DNA of 64,000 nt. Source: Escherichia phage CMSTMSU. Shown here in pieces: positions 3,747 to 43,834 of this stretch. The notes beneath the pieces were generated by a model, which worked only from the letters and a program-made list of their open reading frames with translations, had not been told where the DNA came from and made no database searches. The position numbers were made by a program, and so were the translations under genes. Numbering within the stretch: position 1 is the first letter of the stretch; each line of letters begins with the position of its first letter. The stretch lies in the sequence record MH494197.1; one strand, written 5' to 3'.

Positions 3747-4615
3747 ATTGGCCTTCTCGATAAATTCATCAAGTGTTAAGCGTTTACTCTGTGCCGTTTT
3801 TCAAAACCACGGATTGGGTTTCCATGACCTTTCCAATGGTAGATTGGTTCTTGCCAGAATTCACCATATACTGGATCTACAATACATACCTTAGTCCATG
3901 CACCAGTATACTCCACTTTACTGTAGTCATATAAATGACCATGTACTGCACGAGAACGTTCAATAAAACTTCGTTGGTGAATGTTTTATTTACTGAAGTT
4001 CCTATACGCCCACGTTCCATGTTACCATGCTTGGATTTTAAATGGTCATATGGCGTTTGCCAGAATTCACCATACACTGGATCAATAATGCATACTGGAG
4101 TTTTACTATTAACATATTCTACGTTTGAATAATCGAACGTATTTCCAAAACGTTCGATAGCTTCAGCTATAAATGTTTCAGTTGTTTTTGATTTAAGTTT
4201 TTACCATTTTCAATGGCACGTTGTGGGCTACCTGCACCTTTTAAATGGGAGCTGGGTTCTTGCCAGAATTCACCATACACTGGATCAATAATACATACCT
4301 TAGTGCTATTATTTTTATAAACAACTTTACTATAATCATAGAGGTTGTTATGAACTTTTTCTGCTCGTTCTATAAACGTTTGGGTGGTTAATTTGCCAAC
4401 ACCTGAACGATATGGATTCCTGACCGCGAATGTGATGTGACGGAGTTTGCCAGAATTCACCATACACCGGATCAATAATGCATACTGGTTCTTTAGCTTT
4501 TACATACACTGCTTTTTCGTAATTATAGAGATCACCATGTACATTTCGTGCAGCAATTAAAAAGTTTCTTGGTCGGTAACACGCATTTTCTTTATCCCTA
4601 GTACGTTTCATTTCG
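3330..4615 (-). repeat. tandem array of at least 5 copies of a ~40-codon coding module
   Basis: motif YDYSKVVY..KVCIIDPVYGEFWQTPSSHL.G.G recurs in ORFs 3333..3746 (x2), 3877..4077, 4167..4475, 4348..4611 in different frames. Confidence 0.6.
4167..4611 (-). CDS. repeat-module paralogue(s), two overlapping frames
   Basis: ORFs 4167..4475 and 4348..4611 each carry one module; RBS and ATG at 4611. Confidence 0.4.
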
Positions 4616-4621
4616 ATAGAG

Positions 4622-4656
4622 CTATAATAGCAAAGGGCTGACCGAAGTCAACTCTT
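4622..4656 (-). promoter_or_regulatory. degenerate hairpin-promoter cassette
   Basis: TTGACTTCGGTCAGCCCTTTGCTATTATAG upstream of ATG at 4611. Confidence 0.45.
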
Positions 4657-4863
4657 TGATATGATAATATAATCATTCCATAAATTATATATATTGTTTT
4701 CAACACAATCATCATCGCTTAATTCTATAATTGACGAGATAAGTTCTGATAAGGTTTGTGTGTTCAAAACCGTATCACGATGTCTCAACCACCATTTCAT
4801 GGTGAGTGTTCGGATTTTGTACGGATTGTTTGAAAACTTGTATCTAGAAGTGTCAAGTATCAT
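4648..4863 (-). CDS. hypothetical protein
   Basis: 71-aa ORF. Confidence 0.35.
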   Translation of the reverse strand: MILDTSRYKFSNNPYKIRTLTMKWWLRHRDTVLNTQTLSELISSIIELSDDDCVENNIYNLWNDYIIISKS

Positions 4864-4875
4864 TTTAATCTCTAT

Positions 4876-5310
4876 TTACTTAATCATCTCGGTATAGTAC
4901 TCAGGTAACTCAACATCAGTAAATTTATACCACTTAGGCTTCATTTGGAGCTTCTCAATCAAGCGTTCACGAGACATTTTAATCTCTGAATCAGATGGTA
5001 CATAGTCCGCAAAACTCCGCAGGAAGCCGCTAATGTCGTTTAATTCAATGTTTTGAATCTTCATACCACGACGCAAACATTCGTTAACAATTTCAATATG
5101 ACGCTTCTGTAAGTACAATAACTTGTTGTAGAAGAATGTTACATGACCTGAACCTAACAGGTAAGTACTGTTAATTTTGAAATCACGTACACGCTTACGT
5201 GCTTGAACATGTTTTTGTACAGCACCAAATACACGTGGAAGTTCACGATATTCAGCCATCAGATGTTGGTCAGCAAGTTCTTTAACGTGTACTAAGTTAA
5301 TGCGGGTCAT
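4876..5310 (-). CDS. denV: pyrimidine dimer DNA glycosylase / endonuclease V
   Basis: [31 protein letters not shown]... closely matches T4 endonuclease V as recalled from memory; ATG at 5310 after GAGGATGAA RBS (track ORF starts at TTG 5367 and reads through the promoter hairpin). Confidence 0.85.
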
Positions 5311-12771: not shown

Positions 12772-12814
12772 AATTTAATACCTCACGTTGTTTGTATTTT
12801 GTATCACTTGATGA

Positions 12815-12857
12815 AAATATTATACGACAAAGGGCTGACCAAAGTCAACCCTTTTAA
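12815..12857 (-). promoter_or_regulatory. hairpin-embedded sigma-70 promoter
   Basis: GGGTTGACTTTGGTCAGCCCTTTGTCGTATAAT. Confidence 0.6.
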
Positions 12858-12936
12858 TTATTTTTAAACTTATGTTTTTCGCCTTCAATAGAGTTCACGA
12901 TGTCATCATGAATCTTGCGAAGGTTATGAGTTTTCT

Positions 12937-13239
12937 TTAGTGCTTCATGTAGTGCACGGAATGCTGCGTGTACTGTTGCCTTGAAGTGCTCTTTAGAGTC
13001 ACTTTAAGTTTCTCAATGATATCACGTACATAAATTGGATGTTCTTCAAATACACGATTCAATTCATGGCCTAGTGATTCTAAACTGAAAGCTTTTTCGC
13101 GTGAAGGACGATCATGTGCAAGACTTTGGTCAGGCTTTAGTAGACCTAGTGAATCAAGATACTTATGCTTATGTGCATTATCAATTCCAGAAATATCCAC
13201 ATCATGCGATGGATCTTTCTTATTCCATTTATCAACCAT
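12937..13239 (-). CDS. hypothetical protein
   Basis: 100-aa ORF. Confidence 0.45.
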   Translation of the reverse strand: MVDKWNKKDPSHDVDISGIDNAHKHKYLDSLGLLKPDQSLAHDRPSREKAFSLESLGHELNRVFEEHPIYVRDIIEKLKVTLKSTSRQQYTQHSVHYMKH

Positions 13240-13371
13240 TTCATACTCCTTAAAGAGATAAATTACTTTAATATTTATACTTCATGTGCTGTTTATTTCT
13301 ACAGACACTTAAGATTATATCACGTAAGAAATGGTTGTCCCAAAGTCAAATCAGTACTGTTTAAGTTCTGA

Positions 13372-13800
13372 ACTGAAGATAAAGGAATCCATATCTTCTA
13401 GTGTTAACTTCAAGTCCGGTGTGTACTTTAATATCACACATTCAGGTTTCTTAATGGCAGCTTGATAGGCAGCAATTGCCAACTGTTGAAGCTGCTCTGG
13501 CGTGTAGTTCATGCGTTCTGCATTGAATACGATGTTCTTAATATCACCACCGGCAGCTTCTCGAACTCACGCATAACAGCAGCCATCACATCATCAGATG
13601 TATTCTTATAAGCCCAATGAGGTAGTTGCATAACGTCATAAATCTCGCCATTGTCGTTCATAAGAGAGATCCATTTTTACCGTCCGATGAACTAAACAGA
13701 CGACCTTTAATAGCAATGTTCTCTACCAAATTAACAAAGGCAAATATGTCTTGCTCATTTAGCTCAATGCTATTAACGTTAATCCAACCCATACTACATC
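13372..13800 (-). CDS. hypothetical protein, frame-disrupted
   Basis: hand translation joins MGWINVNSIELNEQD... with ...GEIYDVMQLPHWAYKNTSDD... across a frame change. Confidence 0.35.
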
Positions 13801-13805
13801 TCCAG

Positions 13806-14240
13806 TTATAAATCACGAACGACATTCATTAAACACAATTTGGGCTTTATCGCATTCAAAACCCATATGCATTCTTTGTAAGTTGCTATTATAGCATCTA
13901 AATGCTCAGTTACAATGCTTTCTTGAAAATATTCTTCTTCATTGAGCTTTGCTAAATTAGTCACATCACATGTAGGTACTATAGTTCTGGATTGTACACC
14001 CATTCCATTATTGATATTGGTAAAATGTAAAATTTGTACTTCACCACACCGTTATCTACACTTATGATACATGTCAAATGTTCCAACTCAGTTAGTTCGG
14101 TATTACAAGTGACATGGATGAATCCAGCATTATAGGCTCTATAATCATCTACTAATATCTCAAAATCATTACGTTCAAATATAAGTGAAATGAGTTTGTC
14201 TTGTGGTTTAACCTTCTGAAATTTTAACGAATTTACGTAT
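13806..14240 (-). CDS. FQxS-motif family protein, frame-disrupted
   Basis: ORF 13806..14003 carries NEEEYFQESIV; upstream reading continues in another frame. Confidence 0.4.
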
Positions 14241-22635: not shown

Positions 22636-22917
22636 TTAAATTACATACGGTTTATAGTAATGAATCTCGTTTGCGATTGCAGTGAAAACTTTATTATTAA
22701 ATCTTTCACCATAATCACGAAGTGATTCACCTTCTTCGCTTTCAATGAAGTAATTATATACTGGTAGACGTGCGGTGTCAACACCTATAAATGATTTCAT
22801 GTAAATTTGTACTAAACGATTCATTCCTTCATTTAAGCATTGCACCTCAAAGTGCTTGATACCTTTGTCTAAGTGTTTGAATGCATTCATGATACCACGT
22901 TTAAAATCACGCTGCAT
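22636..22917 (-). CDS. hypothetical protein
   Basis: 93-aa ORF. Confidence 0.45.
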   Translation of the reverse strand: MQRDFKRGIMNAFKHLDKGIKHFEVQCLNEGMNRLVQIYMKSFIGVDTARLPVYNYFIESEEGESLRDYGERFNNKVFTAIANEIHYYKPYVI

Positions 22918-23428
22918 AGTACTGAATAGATTCTCAGGAACACTGTAATAGGTGACATTGATTTAAGAATGTATGTATCTTTAGCATTCTTAATATACTC
23001 AATAAAGCAGTAGTTAACGTCAGGCTCGATAGAACGATCAGCGTTATGATACCAGTGTTTAAACTCACTGTACTCAGCGAACTTATGCTGGCGTAATGCG
23101 TTACAATCTTCACACAGTGCAGTCATGTTCTCTTTATCATTACCGCCCTGAAGACAGTCCAGTACATTATGGTCTAACGTCATGCGTACAAGGCGTTTCC
23201 TTTAAGTACATAAGGTCTGAATTTATAACGGTCTTTAGTACTGTGTTTATGTAAAGTGAATACCACATTGGATTCACCACAACAATCACATTTAAAGCCA
23301 TCACGTGACATTACATGAATGAGTTTTCGAGTATTTGGGCCGAACTCAGATTTAGTAATGTTGCCAACAATTTCTGATGGGTCGTAGTATTTTGAATTCC
23401 GGCGAATCAATTCATCTATAGTGCTCAT
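22887..23428 (-). CDS. HNH endonuclease (two overlapping frames)
   Basis: CDCCGES...HKH in ORF 23180..23428 plus DHNVLDCLQGGNDKENMTALCEDCN in ORF 22887..23183: two Cys pairs and His-Asn-His arrangement typical of HNH nucleases. Confidence 0.55.
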
Positions 23429-23654: not shown

Positions 23655-23928
23655 CTCATTTAGTTTGTCCAACAATTAGTTTCTCTCTAGTATTACTATT
23701 GTAACACCACATTAATTCTTCACCAACTGTTCTAAGTGAAACGCTGTTTACTTGTTCATAAGTACTGTCACGTACTGCAATGCATTGATTCATTGAATTC
23801 ATTGGGGTGATTTGTACACCAGATTGTGGTGAAAGAGCAATAATTAAAAGATTACTGAATTCATTAGATATTCCTTAGTGGTTAATCATCCATCTCTTCG
23901 AGATGTCTGTTCGCTTCTAATACTACGT

Positions 23929-23957
23929 ATTCTACGCGAATGAATCATAACTGTCAA
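23929..23957 (-). promoter_or_regulatory. sigma-70-like promoter, TTGACA-N17-TAGAAT
   Basis: minus strand TTGACAgttatgattcattcgcgTAGAAT. Confidence 0.45.
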
Positions 23958-23959
23958 GG

Positions 23960-24455
23960 ACTTTTAATATTGACGGGATTTGAGGAAGGATTTTTCTTCC
24001 CCACATGGAGGGAATTTGACGCTGATGGTATCAGAGCTATTGCATTGAAGATTACTCATAATGAGTGCGAAAGCGGGTCATCCTGTTTCTCTCTACTTCA
24101 GTTTCATATGACGGTCTACACTTTTAAACATAGTGTATCTTCATTAAGTATCTATGCAATCAAATACTTAATGTGAGTACTCAAATTTTGGACGCAACTT
24201 TCCTGTACAAAATTCGATAACTCTCCTTAGATAATTCGTAAGGTGTTATCCTTATATGTCTATCGAGGAACCATCAGCTATCCTAACGTGGTTCTTTATA
24301 CAGCCGCATTGCCGTGAGGGGTTCAAACTATGCCCACATCTAACGGGTTTCTTTTGCTGTTCGCTACAATGAAAAGCTCATCTATCCTTTACATTTTCAA
24401 GTGAAGTAGGGGAAGATTGTCAGTACCAGTACTGTCATTGTGATTGTACATAGAT
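23960..24455 (-). other. ~0.5-kb interval with no ORF over ~30 codons on either strand; candidate structured ncRNA or decayed gene
   Basis: stops in all minus frames every 15-30 codons; locally higher GC; lies between two promoters. Confidence 0.3.
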
Positions 24456-24487
24456 CATTGTATCACCATTAATAAATTTGTCCCATA

Positions 24488-24516
24488 AAAAGGCTGACCG
24501 AAGTCAACCCTTTAAT
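24488..24516 (-). terminator. UUCG-tetraloop hairpin terminator (cassette without a good -10)
   Basis: GGGTTGACTTCGGTCAGCCTTTTT downstream of sigma-factor gene. Confidence 0.5.
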
Positions 24517-24517
24517 C

Positions 24518-25480
24518 TTAAAAATCTTCGAACTCGTAACCTTGCATCTTCACCATCTTACGCAGTCGTTCCATTGCTTCAGAGTACTTACGGTGCAATG
24601 AAGAACGAGCAGTCATGACCTTACCCTTCTCATCTTCAAAACCACTCTCAATGATTTCTCGTAGCGTTTCTGGTTCAGAATAAGAACCAATACCATGTAC
24701 ACGTTCAATCAATTCACGGTCTTTGGCAGATAGGTTACTCATCATTTCTGCAATACTTTGTACCAGTGGGTACTGACAGTTTCTACGCCTAAGTTGTAAT
24801 CAGGTTCAACTGAAGTAACAATGTCAGATAATGTACTTTCTGAATCATTACTCATTTTCATATTCAATGCTACATAAGTGTTATTGTAAGTTAGACAATT
24901 CTTAACGTGTTGAATCTCAATACCAGTCTCTTTTGACACCATCTCAGGAGTTGGGTATTTACCATGTTTCCTTTGATACTCTTCTACACAACGTTTCACA
25001 TAAATGTTATTAACACTCATATAACGTGGGAAATGCACTAGATAATTAGCATCTGCACTTTCGTTATAGATTGTCATGTACACAGTTGTTGTTGCATATG
25101 TAATGAACTTAACATTTTGGTAGTGTCGAACGTATGAATTGCTCGCATTAAACCTTCAACACCATAAGAAATCTTATCTTCAAATGGGATGAAACATGTA
25201 CACTTACGTGCAACACTTACTACCATTGGATAGTTGTAGCGAACCAAAAGGTCAATATTCTTTTCAACGTCAATACCATCACGCACTGCTTGGATGAGCA
25301 TTTCATTCGTTATCCCTTTAGGGCGAGTTAAGCTGATACCTGTTTTGGTTTCTCAAACTTGTGACCGTCATGTTCTTCTTCTTCGACGGAATCAAGAGCC
25401 TCTAATACGTTGACTTCTTCACTAGCAAAACACTCATCCAGTACTTCTTCAGAAATTGCATTTAAATCAAGCTTTTTCAC
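24518..25480 (-). CDS. sigma-70-family RNA polymerase sigma factor, frame-disrupted
   Basis: region 2-like NYPMVVSVARK...EDKISYGVEGLMRAIHTFD (ORF 25074..25301), region 3-like YPTPEMVSKETGIEIQHV (24742..25083), region 4-like SAKDRELIERVHGIG...TLREI...RKYSEAMERLRK (24518..24745). Confidence 0.65.
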
Positions 25481-36565: not shown

Positions 36566-36697
36566 ATCGTCATCATAGCAAAAACTCTAACTTCACCAAT
36601 ATCTTTTAATTGTACATCATGTAGTGACCATGCGTTGTTTTTAATACGTAGTTCACCATTTTAACAATGTTGTATTTCATAGTGTACCTTTATTTTG

Positions 36698-36770
<73 letters not shown>

Positions 36771-36773
36771 TGA

Positions 36774-36856
<83 letters not shown>

Positions 36857-36907
36857 AGAAGTAAGATAACCAACAAGTCTCCATACTCTTTCGCATTGAG
36901 GGGAGGC

Positions 36908-36968
<61 letters not shown>

Positions 36969-37020
36969 GCCAAGTGTCGGCATAGGTGCAGCACTATAAA
37001 GTTCTTCAAGCTGTTTGGCA

Positions 37021-37110
<90 letters not shown>

Positions 37111-37112
37111 TA

Positions 37113-37237
<125 letters not shown>

Positions 37238-37256
37238 GCATACTCGAAGTACCTCT

Positions 37257-37294
<38 letters not shown>

Positions 37295-37313
37295 AACTGA
37301 ATACTTACATCCC

Positions 37314-37348
<35 letters not shown>

Positions 37349-37400
37349 ATAGGCACACACGGAACTGCTTTATAAGCTACTGAATCGGGAATCACAACCT

Positions 37401-37660
<260 letters not shown>

Positions 37661-37724
37661 TAATACCCGCTAGTAGTTTAAGTCTGCGGCGTTGAAGACA
37701 CCAAGTGAAGTCTTACCACGTAGT

Positions 37725-37964
37725 TTAGGTGAAATGACATATTTTGTCAATTTCTTTTACCGTACCAGTGATTGAATTCGTCTTCAGTAACATGTGGGTT
37801 CTGGAAATCGTATTCACGTTTCTTATGAAGTTTTTAGCTTGTTCTGCAATCTTAGTTCGTTGATCTTCTGGAATGTCGAATGTATTGTTACGTTTGCACC
37901 ATTCGTGCACTAATGCTTCCAGAAGGAACTGTTCAGTTTCTTTGACTAGAGTGATTTTAGTCAA
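37725..37964 (-). CDS. hypothetical protein
   Basis: 79-aa ORF. Confidence 0.4.
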   Translation of the reverse strand: MTKITLVKETEQFLLEALVHEWCKRNNTFDIPEDQRTKIAEQAKNFIRNVNTISRTHMLLKTNSITGTVKEIDKICHFT

Positions 37965-38075
37965 GCCTTTTCGATGTTCATATAATCATCGACATATCCA
38001 TTCCAAATAACAATCTCTGGATTGCCGTCAATCTCTTGAAGCATTTTGATCAAGTCATTCTTTTCATTTAAATTC

Positions 38076-38321
<246 letters not shown>

Positions 38322-38341
38322 AAGTATGCCATATTTGTTTC

Positions 38342-38527
38342 CTATGAAATGAATGTAGCGTTAATTCCCATTATAAATGCAAATATACCAAACAATATCA
38401 GACCGATTGGTACAAAGATCATAGATCTATTTCCATGTTTCGATAAAAATCGTTCAACTGTAATTAAACGTATTGATATCGGAACCATTATAATAATATA
38501 CAATATTGAAAGAATTAAAAGTTGCAT
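38342..38527 (-). CDS. small membrane protein
   Basis: 61-aa hydrophobic ORF. Confidence 0.4.
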   Translation of the reverse strand: MQLLILSILYIIIMVPISIRLITVERFLSKHGNRSMIFVPIGLILFGIFAFIMGINATFIS

Positions 38528-38556
38528 TTTAATTTCCTATTGTAATTTCGTTTTTG

Positions 38557-39352
<796 letters not shown>

Positions 39353-39711
39353 TCACCAACTTTAATTAAAAAATGGATGGTGACGCTTTTAAACGCCGCT
39401 GTTAATTCAGCTTTATAACCACCGTTTTAACTTGCCTTTCGGCTACCTTGACGTGGTGCGTACAGGCTACTAAAAGCAACTACTGTAAACATATTTCCAC
39501 GCCTTACCCTTTTAAATAAAAGTCCATCCGGTTTTCCAGTTTGGTGAAGGATAGTCACCTCTAGTTTAAACCTGCTAGTCAAGTAATAATTGCCTATCGT
39601 CCAATTATCAAACCCGTCTAGGTTAACATTCACCACTTCCTAGAGTACCAGAGATCTTGTTCTGGATTGCATCGACGTAACTTACACCATATACGTCTGA
39701 TTGTGGAATTC

Positions 39712-39745
<34 letters not shown>

Positions 39746-39805
39746 TTTACAAATCTGGACGTTCATCTTTAAACATATTAATCTCCTTGGTACTGAACTA
39801 TTTAT

Positions 39806-40218
<413 letters not shown>

Positions 40219-40235
40219 CTTTTTATTCATCGGTA

Positions 40236-40273
<38 letters not shown>

Positions 40274-40287
40274 TTAAATATGCTTTG

Positions 40288-40322
<35 letters not shown>

Positions 40323-40387
40323 AGAATCTAATGGTAGATAATAAGGATTCCACTTTATTTTTGGCGTTTCATCCACTCTTCATGTGT

Positions 40388-40557
40388 CATATTCGTACCA
40401 GTAGTTCAATTAAGTACATTTCATATGCTGGATCGTTGATAAGTTTATCATACAGATGTGGCTCTGAAATGAATTCCCAATGATACTTTAGCCATTTACC
40501 GATACCCGAATATCTAAAATTAATATCATTCATCCATTCTTCATGTGTCATTTTCGT

Positions 40558-40561
<4 letters not shown>
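40388..40561 (-). CDS. MTHEEW-family small protein, copy B (~55 aa)
   Basis: hand translation MTHEEWMNDINFRYSGIGKWLKYHWEFISEP...; stop overlaps ATG of a truncated third copy. Confidence 0.4.
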
Positions 40562-40712
<151 letters not shown>

Positions 40713-40735
40713 GGTTTAACCTTTAATTAAAATTG

Positions 40736-40814
<79 letters not shown>

Positions 40815-40818
40815 ATTT

Positions 40819-40934
<116 letters not shown>

Positions 40935-43267: not shown

Positions 43268-43834
43268 TTAGTATTCCTCAACAACGGTTAGGAATCTATC
43301 CCAACCAGTATAAGTGAAATGATCAAAGTATTGTTTTTCGCCACCTACCATATATACTTCAATTAAACCGTGGTCGAAATAATTTTTGGTTTTAACTTCA
43401 GTTACAATTGCTTTATGTCTGAAACCATTATAATCAGTATATGTTACAATATCGTGAATTTTGATATTATCAGGTGTATAAGTGTTGGCGTTATTATTGA
43501 GAACATGAAGATGATGGTCTACGATTTCTTTACTGGAAATTACCCCAAATATGTTACCAGAAAATACTTTATTACCATTACAGGTCAATGCCCAGCCATC
43601 ACCAACTTCAATAGATTCAAATACATAATGTGTGCAAATTTTAGATACATCTGATGTATCCCAGTAATCACCATCAAGATTGGTGAATTTATAAACAGTT
43701 TTGAGTTTTTCGCCATCAAATGAAAGCAATGATACTCCGATAACAACCGTTCCGTCTTTAAGAATAATATTAAATTTATTATTTGTATTAAAGTATGCTT
43801 CTGACTCAGATGAGTTGAATTTAATAAAGTTCAT
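43268..43834 (-). CDS. hypothetical protein (188 aa)
   Basis: long intact ORF. Confidence 0.65.
   Translation of the reverse strand: MNFIKFNSSESEAYFNTNNKFNIILKDGTVVIGVSLLSFDGEKLKTVYKFTNLDGDYWDTSDVSKICTHYVFESIEVGDGWALTCNGNKVFSGNIFGVISSKEIVDHHLHVLNNNANTYTPDNIKIHDIVTYTDYNGFRHKAIVTEVKTKNYFDHGLIEVYMVGGEKQYFDHFTYTGWDRFLTVVEEY

Follow-up and report, generated by a model that had tools for sequence, protein, structure and literature searches.

The interval 23960-24455 in a 64,000-nucleotide (nt) stretch of DNA from Escherichia phage CMSTMSU (MH494197.1), in the following called the window, is probably an independent gene for a large (about 450-490 nt), compact non-coding RNA on the minus strand that acts in trans as a folded particle. 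It is part of a real family of structured RNA genes, and on this point hardly any doubt remains. At least 16 helices and three pseudoknots are supported by covariation, in addition to about 90 invariant nucleotides that are mostly unpaired. The family is new and has no counterpart in Rfam. The window is DNA of an Asteriusvirus-type jumbo coliphage, and the 2.5 kb around the interval are 97% identical to the Escherichia phages WPEC5, WPEC3, fEgEco12 and Ecwhy_1. The interval separates the 3' end of a phage sigma-factor gene from a series of small open reading frames (ORFs) of early type, and the local genes are on the minus strand. An earlier reading made from the letters of the window (the sequence-only reading) had taken the interval for a candidate structured non-coding RNA on the minus strand, and the covariation among 46 copies presented below bears this out.

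Covariation and structure of the RNA

Two alignments were used. The first (A1) consists of 18 sequences; its RNAalifold consensus has 75 pairs, of which 43 show compensatory changes. The second (A2) consists of 46 copies; pattern scans of IMG/VR followed by a profile filter gave 59 full-length copies, from which the 45 below 96% identity were taken together with the window copy. The mean column identity in A2 is 57%, with 88 invariant and about 65 near-invariant columns. The invariant columns are found mainly in unpaired strands, namely GAAACCCGU, ACGGCAAUGCGGC, UAUAAAG, GAUAGACAUAU, UAAGGGAG, GACCGU, GAAACAG, AACCCGC and CGUCA. When all column pairs in A2 were scanned, three long-range pairings emerged that had escaped nested folding, designated PK0, PK1 and PK2.

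The resulting model comprises 20 helices, 101 pairs and the three pseudoknots (Table 1), and the window copy threads onto every helix. Standard pairs make up 95.0% of the cells over the 46 copies, as against 74.2% in shuffles and 36-42% when the partners were slid by 1-3 columns, and in 78 of the 101 pairs both partners have changed. For covariation the score was 0.544, compared with 0.179 for shuffles and 0.06-0.10 for slid partners, and none of 500 shuffles reached any of these measures. Compensatory substitutions beyond the controls, by which a structured non-coding RNA is generically recognized, are therefore present. G-U pairs are frequent (e.g. UG:39/CG:7, GU:45 and GU:31/AU:13), and because they would be C-A mismatches on the opposite strand the RNA is assigned to the minus strand.

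The strand that pairs with the P9 loop in PK1 is located 110 nt downstream of it, and in PK2 the GACCGUUGC strand pairs with the P12 loop. P14 was read from the alignments and is kept outside the formal pair count, as its 5' strand is out of register in the MAFFT alignment. P15 is 98% paired, with CCUC/UGGG in the window and CCCC/GGGG plus GGAUGAA in the family, and its only changes are C/U opposite G. A closing helix between 5' UUGAC and 3' GUCAR and a loop contact between GAUAG and CUAUC are compatible with the sequences; their strands are invariant and they are thus outside the covariation support.

P8 is an optional peripheral domain: 9 of the 46 copies are without it, and 2 others have lost most of it. 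P1, P6, P10 and P13 vary in length. P13 is capped by a GNRA tetraloop in about 12 copies. The UE-S1 copy at 174.5 kb has a 56-nt internal tandem duplication of GAAACCCGU...GCGGCU in the P4/P5 region (A1 columns 132-187). P14 (GAYGM-loop-KCGUCAR) resembles the hairpin of the 3' module (GAUGA-loop-UCGUCAR), and two of their positions change in step within copies: AUC/ACC is distributed 37:9 with no exception and CAG/CAA 32:11 with 3 mixed copies. The same positions differ between paralogues of one genome. An alternative pairing or a shared partner could be the cause of the in-step change.

Table 1. The RNA gene, its structural parts and the adjacent transcription signals, in window positions
Feature	Positions	Strand	Description
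Terminator hairpin	24487..24515	-	Intrinsic terminator of the upstream sigma-factor gene, outside the RNA; found by self-BLAST; annotated as 'terminator' in UE-S1
RNA gene promoter	24484..24457	-	GGGACA-16-TACAAT; extended -10 TG at 24465-24464, TACAAT at 24462-24457; consensus scan
RNA gene	24449..23964	-	About 486 nt; nhmmer profile, alignments A1 and A2, covariance model R1
PK0	24366..24441	-	ACAAUGA(C) 24441-24434 with P3 loop UCAUUGU 24372-24366; encloses P1 and P2; A2 columns 46-53/134-141; 8/8 pairs change on both sides, 84% of cells paired
P1	24421..24433	-	Variable 5' hairpin AGUAC/GUACU; 5/5 pairs compensatory
P2	24382..24409	-	Hairpin with conserved loop GAAAAUGUA; 7/8 compensatory
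P3	24363..24377	-	Hairpin GCU/AGC, loop forms PK0, invariant UGAG just 5'; 100% paired, 2/3 compensatory
P4	24300..24360	-	ACAGC/GCUGU; encloses P5 and invariant GAAACCCGU and ACGGCAAUGCGGC; 100% paired, 3/5 compensatory
P5	inside P4 (24300..24360)	-	CCGU..ACGG and GGG/CCC; largely invariant
P6	24268..24294	-	Hairpin GAACCA/UGGUUC, invariant UAUAAAG before it; 6/6 compensatory, 97.5% paired
P7	24239..24254	-	Hairpin UAAG/CUUA, flanked by invariant GAUAGACAUAU and CUAAGGGAG; one G of CUAAGGGAG missing at 24227
P8	24175..24223	-	GAGU/ACUC with inner P8a UUUG/CAAA; P8 4/4 compensatory, 98.8% paired
P9	24142..24173	-	13-bp hairpin; 11/13 compensatory, 96% paired
PK1	24039..24160	-	P9 loop AUUGCA 24160-24155 with UGCAAU 24044-24039; 6/6 compensatory, 99.6% paired
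P10	24116..24138	-	Hairpin AUAC/GUAG; 3/4 compensatory
PK2	24077..24112	-	GUCAU 24112-24108 (invariant GACCGU strand) with AUGAC 24081-24077; 100% paired, 3/5 compensatory
P11	24046..24100	-	UGAAG/CUUCA; encloses P12 and P13; 100% paired, 4/5 compensatory
P12	inside P11 (24046..24100)	-	GAGAG/CUUUC, loop AAACAGGAUGACCCG; 100% paired, 4/5 compensatory
P13	inside P11 (24046..24100)	-	ACU/AGU; 3/3 compensatory
P14	24022..24034	-	Hairpin; CUGAU-ACC-AUCAG in the window, GAYGM-CUAUCA-KCGUC in most copies; invariant CGUCA next
3' module	23964..24013	-	P15 hairpin followed by CAAAUCYCGUCAR; in all 46 copies; candidate part of the mature RNA
Promoter of downstream genes	23957..23929	-	TTGACA-17-TAGAAT, 11/12 matches; marks the end of the unit, outside the RNA

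Coding potential and sequence quality

The interval is interrupted by 11, 11 and 13 stops in its three minus-strand frames (about 165 codons), and no open stretch is longer than 41 codons. The only ORF of some size, which the sequence-only reading had also named, is on the plus strand (23940-24176, 78 amino acids (aa)); neither this ORF nor two smaller ones of the window had a match in Pfam or PHROGs. In the UE-S1 orthologue, which has 92.8% identity over the shared 549 bases, the longest ORF is 43 aa. Over the 46 non-redundant family members the longest ORF is 34-85 aa, with strand and frame differing among members; no ORF is conserved in the RNA family. The frame or family match expected of a protein-coding gene was accordingly not found. 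The statement of the sequence-only reading that the interval is without an ORF on either strand agrees with the stop counts and with the 46 homologues, and the frame-corrected protein with homologues that would have contradicted its proposal did not appear in the ORF survey, in Pfam or in PHROGs. The same reading had called the interval GC-rich. The enrichment is real, 0.389 for 23964-24449 against a mean of 0.349 (standard deviation 0.028) for segments of equal size over the window, but only modest, as 8% of the segments equal or exceed this value.

Comparison with WPEC5 (97.6% identical) showed deletions of 1 nt in homopolymers of the window sequence. Four indels are inside the interval, at 23990, 24005, 24015 and 24227. 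The sigma-factor gene (24518-25480) is divided into three ORFs by 1-nt homopolymer deletions at 24771, 25115 and 25343, and an HNH endonuclease gene (22636-23428) likewise into three by deletions at 22939 and 23201; both are intact in WPEC5. This pattern suggests sequencing errors in homopolymers of the assembly, and not that the genes have decayed to pseudogenes. With such deletions the window sequence on its own is no safe ground for calling the interval free of ORFs; the relatives were therefore consulted and confirmed it, most of them having no annotation at the RNA locus. The window copy reads UAAGGAG at 24227 and all 45 other copies have the invariant UAAGGGAG. The G that is missing from this homopolymer is probably a sequencing error and not a variant. 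In the WPEC5 and Hallingskeid records several 'hypothetical protein' coding sequences of 30-70 aa, on either strand, have been placed automatically over the RNA copies, and these are almost certainly spurious.

That the interval is a protein-coding gene broken by sequencing errors of the assembly would fit with the homopolymer deletions in the two neighbouring genes and the four indels within the interval. This explanation has next to no probability and is already refuted by the covariation and the ORF survey: no ORF exceeds 85 aa in any of the 46 homologues, strand and frame shift, the window ORFs are without match in the two databases, most curated relatives annotate nothing at the locus, and the substitution pattern is that of a base-paired RNA.

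Distribution of the RNA family

A sensitive BLASTN search with 23800-24520 against about 50,700 phage genomes gave matches in 61 records. Beyond the close Asteriusvirus relatives, the part 23960-24411 of the window was found at 68-70% nucleotide identity in distant genera of jumbo phages: in Mimasvirus (CBB, GAP32 and XbC2), in Eneladusvirus (Serratia phage BF, the Erwinia pEa_SNUABM phages and the Yersinia phages fHe-Yen9-03/04), in Munch-like Salmonella and Klebsiella phages and in the Erwinia phages Kaldavass and Hallingskeid. Alcyoneusvirus is also among the genera that carry the family. The conserved core has almost exactly the limits of the interval that the sequence-only reading had singled out. 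Over the public phage collections that were searched, the family occurs only in Rak2-like jumbo phages of Enterobacterales and Xanthomonas.

Within the window the family profile gave a single nhmmer match (24417-23964, E 3.8e-104), and covariance model R1 a single significant match (124.7 bits, E 6e-27). The next best score, 13.7 bits at 43502-43633, was rejected as a second copy; it is inside a 188-aa ORF with a Shine-Dalgarno site. Scanning IMG/VR with the 14-mer CACGGCAATGCGGC gave mostly chance matches, with 8 true loci among the 120 matches listed, and longer patterns worked. Gapped-pattern scans of bacterial genomes and metagenomes gave no true copy among the matches listed (at least 120 each), the pattern being too loose and the matches chance GC-rich ones. 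The distribution outside phages is for this reason based solely on the E. coli, plasmid and phage collections.

Rfam 15 contains 4227 covariance models. At gathering thresholds only five transfer RNAs (tRNAs) were found in the whole window. At E<=10 the locus gave only noise of 15-19 bits, and at E<=5 seven other family members gave only noise, which nowhere overlapped the element on the RNA strand. The Rfam search that the sequence-only reading had suggested thus matched no family and puts the element outside the known ones. With ARAGORN only six tRNAs, at 36.7-40.9 kb, were found in the window, and no tRNA-like or transfer-messenger RNA match at the locus. The tRNA cluster (36697-40908, minus strand) consists of Thr(tgt) x2, Asn, Met, Ser(gct) and Ser(tga) and is 12 kb from the RNA gene.

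Most matching records (e.g. CBB, GAP32, BF, fHe-Yen9-04, Munch and XbC2) have no feature annotated at the RNA. In UE-S1 part of two copies is labelled, only as 'repeat_region'. Full-text literature searches found no description of the RNA element, and the genome papers of CBB and fEgEco12 make no mention of a non-coding RNA or intergenic element.

Paralogue classes and gene context

Searches seeded with other copies showed that each genome has 4-5 diverged paralogues in different gene contexts, and a 371-kb metagenomic jumbo-phage contig has five separate loci. Class a, which includes the window copy, is found directly after the sigma-factor gene in Asteriusvirus and has a divergent full-length orthologue in Klebsiella phage RaK2, which likewise follows the sigma gene (nhmmer E 4.5e-36). 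Class b is beside orthologues of CBB_524, in a putative early region, in Mimasvirus and Eneladusvirus. Class c, found in all groups examined, is between the endonuclease VII gene and structural genes. Class d is beside the cytidylyltransferase and Dam methylase genes, and an extra class occurs in EJP2 and Hallingskeid. The positions of the classes are conserved but mutually unrelated.

Across genera (Mimasvirus, Eneladusvirus and Munch-like phages) copies of the same class have an identity of 0.82-0.89, as against 0.70-0.72 between different classes within a genome. The classes thus arose by duplication before the genera separated, and no paralogue has since been lost. The class d copy of Asteriusvirus is more diverged (0.70-0.76 to the same class elsewhere). 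The paralogues share the core and differ in peripheral helices and in the loop-strand sequence of PK1, which suggests versions that are not interchangeable. Comparison of the neighbours across classes found no conserved protein partner encoded beside the RNA. Genes of about 265 aa beside two of the classes were considered as a shared partner and rejected; they are of unrelated families and match none of the neighbours in the E. coli island described below.

In CBB, WPEC5 and Hallingskeid the class c RNA runs against the genes on either side of it, and in Munch it converges with the downstream genes. It has TGTGATATAAT as well as a hairpin with a T-run. This orientation indicates that the RNA is a transcription unit of its own and speaks against a role as leader. 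A cis-acting leader, large riboswitch or processive antiterminator, with the hairpin and T-run after P14 as a regulated terminator, is quite improbable, even if several features could be read this way: the flanking genes are co-directional with the RNA in classes a, b and d, a run of 5-8 T follows P14 in 24 of the 46 copies, mostly preceded by a hairpin and with a conserved module beyond it, and the in-step changes of the P14 and 3'-module hairpins may stem from alternative pairing. A regulated gene that is downstream and co-directional, as a riboswitch or leader needs, is not present for class c in the four phages named, where the next genes converge on the RNA. In addition, the downstream genes are non-homologous across classes, and those of the window have a near-consensus promoter of their own right after the element.

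Promoters, terminators and ends of the RNA

A consensus scan for promoters found exactly two sites, both sigma-70-type and on the minus strand. They are the two promoters between which the sequence-only reading had placed the interval, including the extended -10 element that it had seen at the upstream edge. An extended -10 (TGnTAnnnT) is located a few bases upstream of the conserved 5' strand in 23 of the 46 copies, and TAnAAT in 28. The RNA is probably transcribed by the host sigma-70 RNA polymerase from this extended -10 promoter. Its predicted 5' end was placed from the spacing to the -10 element and its predicted 3' end where the conservation of the family stops.

The 3' module, with a C-rich/G6 hairpin and GAUGAAA...CAAAUCUCGUCAR, is followed by a -35-like hexamer for the next genes; the form is TTGAAC/TTGACA in many copies. 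The terminator hairpin upstream of the RNA gene promoter recurs in nearly identical form (AAAGGGTTGACTTCGGTCAGCCTTTTT, minus sense) at least nine times in the first 25 kb of the window, with sites at 24487-24515, 2663, 4632, 5347, 9798, 10477, 12051, 12829 and 16404. These sites are apparently one family of intrinsic terminators that has been used repeatedly.

The dispersed promoters and the G-run also bring to mind a replication origin, in which a promoter-driven pre-primer RNA forms an R-loop as in ColE1 RNA II or T4 oriF/oriG, with several such units across a 350-kb genome. Each of the 4-5 copies would bear a promoter, the G6 run after the C-rich run is invariant, the interaction of a G-run with a C-run matters for hybrid formation in ColE1, and a small integrative island could gain from a helper-phage origin. 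Three covarying pseudoknots and dense invariant loops nevertheless exceed the known needs of a primer precursor, the T-run is upstream of the G-run in half of the copies and mostly after a hairpin, and the composition profile is without a clear local switch in GC skew at the locus. An origin function is thus very doubtful.

A copy in an Escherichia coli island

Among 5426 complete E. coli genomes an identical full-length copy of the RNA was found in two, LR-29-1 and EEC_W5; it comes with a TGTGATATAAT promoter of its own (nhmmer E 2.5e-99 over profile positions 3-453). No plasmid with a copy was found in the plasmid collection. The surrounding island is some 10 kb long and is flanked by ybaA and ffs; it contains integrase fragments, IS3, a serine recombinase and a DuOB-DUF488-DUF4326/mSLOG cluster; this cluster is the PADLOC candidate defence system PDC-M45. 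In LR-29-1 the RNA is at positions 3881-4431 of the stretch NZ_AP027515.1 3475305-3483401. It is in a 1.4-kb unannotated gap of the island, the remaining 0.7 kb of which is at 4432-5144 of this stretch. The closest relatives of the copy are the class c copies of Eneladusvirus phages (80.6% identity), which is consistent with capture from a phage. The RNA unit would seem to move whole, with its promoter.

The move of one copy into a bacterial island, together with the multi-copy state, would suit a selfish RNA element that has spread within the genome, such as a degenerate or ORF-less group I or group II intron. The phages are also rich in homing endonucleases, with an HNH gene two genes downstream in the window, and class d is directly after a terminator; some group II introns prefer such sites. 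The RNA is however between genes and has its own promoter instead of being inside a gene, there are no flanking repeats or exon-like junctions, no group I or II model of Rfam matches, and the positions are orthologous across genera and the classes old, so that the spread is not recent. This explanation is largely refuted and highly improbable.

Interpretation

A trans-acting folded particle, either a ribonucleoprotein or an RNA-only scaffold, is held to be somewhat better than an even bet, by analogy. The folded tertiary core would itself be the functional product, and the RNA would act in trans during infection as an RNA particle, which may bind or sequester a protein or RNA partner, self-assemble or catalyse. 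It would not be a messenger RNA (mRNA), a leader or an antisense RNA.

Several observations weigh against the proposal of a stand-alone gene for such a particle. The step to a trans-acting particle is reached by exclusion and by analogy with other large phage RNAs, and the two ends of the RNA, 5' and 3', were both placed from sequence. The class d copies have no recognisable -10 element and start directly after a terminator T-run. The T-run that comes directly after P14 and before the 3' module is in most cases similar to an intrinsic terminator, and its presence upstream of a conserved module in half of the copies is unexplained by a simple model. The window copy carries probable sequencing errors in the form of homopolymer indels. 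Finally, the folding comparison with shuffled controls that had been suggested in the sequence-only reading placed the minus strand below the shuffles (z -2.2), but the effect is weak and strand-blind, as the plus strand gave -2.7.

Catalysis is given a small chance within the trans-acting reading. A ribozyme in which the invariant unpaired nucleotides and the pseudoknots form the active site, self-cleaving or acting in trans (e.g. in phage tRNA or mRNA processing), is a special case of the explanation preferred here and unlikely. The size, the number of pseudoknots and the 88 invariant and about 65 near-invariant columns speak for it. The GNRA tetraloops on P13 suggest tertiary docking, and these phages encode many tRNAs (the six in the window). 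No ribozyme model of Rfam matches even weakly, though, and 4-5 diverged paralogues would be unusual for a housekeeping ribozyme. A resemblance to the hammerhead (GAUGAG..CGAA), judged by eye, was rejected as a defining feature is missing.

A more specific version of the trans-acting particle is offered tentatively, as a possibility that is less likely than its opposite. The RNA may be a previously unrecognised 'ornate' RNA, specific to the Rak2-like phages, with a core that is catalytic or self-assembling. The 4-5 ancient, non-interchangeable paralogues might then make up a multi-component machine or a specificity panel, and the captured island copy might be a decoy or sensor against these phages.

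Large RNAs with complex tertiary structure are rare, and each new class (RNase P, introns, OLE, GOLLD, ROOL and raiA) has opened structural and functional work. The present RNA is found in cultivable phages of E. coli, Salmonella, Klebsiella and Erwinia that are already under study for therapy, and its covariation-backed fold is ready for probing or cryo-electron microscopy (cryo-EM). The paralogues form a natural series in which knock-outs and swaps can be tested directly, and as one copy is found in a bacterial defence island, the RNA may also have a part in the conflict between phage and host. Every Rak2-like genome in GenBank is short of 4-5 gene annotations, and some, e.g. WPEC5 and Hallingskeid, have spurious small proteins in their place.

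Comparison with known RNAs

The RNA is comparable in size to RNase P RNA and group I introns and shares with them long-range pseudoknots and dense invariant unpaired nucleotides. In size, pseudoknot number and invariant columns such figures resemble these RNAs more than protein sponges. The strand ACAG..AACCCGCUU is superficially like the CR-V sequence of RNase P. RNase P RNA was rejected, since no model matched at E<=10 and the CR-V-like CUUUC is engaged in the local hairpin P12, with GAGAG as its covarying partner. A group I intron was rejected on the lack of a match to RF00028 and on the position of the RNA between genes with its own promoter; the resemblance to a group I S-element is located in the optional P8 domain, which the 9 copies mentioned lack. 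For a group II intron there is no Rfam match, and the supported helices show no hairpin like domain V. Unlike RNase P RNA and group I introns, the present RNA is multi-copy and lies between genes under its own promoter.

Like ColE1 RNA II and the T4 origin transcripts, the RNA is structured, about 0.5 kb long and driven by a promoter, and it has a G-run; several such units in a 350-kb phage would be plausible. It differs in a far more elaborate conservation of tertiary structure and in the T-run before the G-run in many copies.

In the Pseudomonas jumbo phage PA5oct, a distant relative of the Rak2-like phages, four putative long non-coding RNAs (ncRNA001-004) have been defined by RNA sequencing in ORF-free regions, with up to 5% of the phage reads (PMC7318152). 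One of them, ncRNA002, is 451 nt (PMC7318152) and thus of about the same size as the RNA described here. Homology to ncRNA001 or ncRNA002 was rejected, as neither the nhmmer profile nor the covariance model found any in the first 30 kb of PA5oct, and these RNAs are analogues at most. The terminal-repeat region of PA5oct has 0.9 kb without annotated features (12810-13720), in which a covariance-model match at 13688-13814 (13.5 bits, E 0.21) is probably noise. No transcriptome of an Asteriusvirus or another Rak2-like phage came up in the literature search.

The closest likeness in kind is with GOLLD and ROOL, large 'ornate' RNAs of phages and prophages that are Rfam families and form nanocages seen by cryo-EM (bioRxiv 10.1101/2024.12.08.627333). 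The RNA has no sequence or structure match to either Rfam model, and the likeness is not one of homology. It also differs in its hosts, jumbo phages of Enterobacterales, in not being beside tRNA islands and in having 4-5 diverged paralogues per genome. What it has in common with GOLLD and ROOL, here judged from sequence, is a phage-encoded, stand-alone gene without an associated protein gene, a length of several hundred nt and a fold of many helices and pseudoknots.

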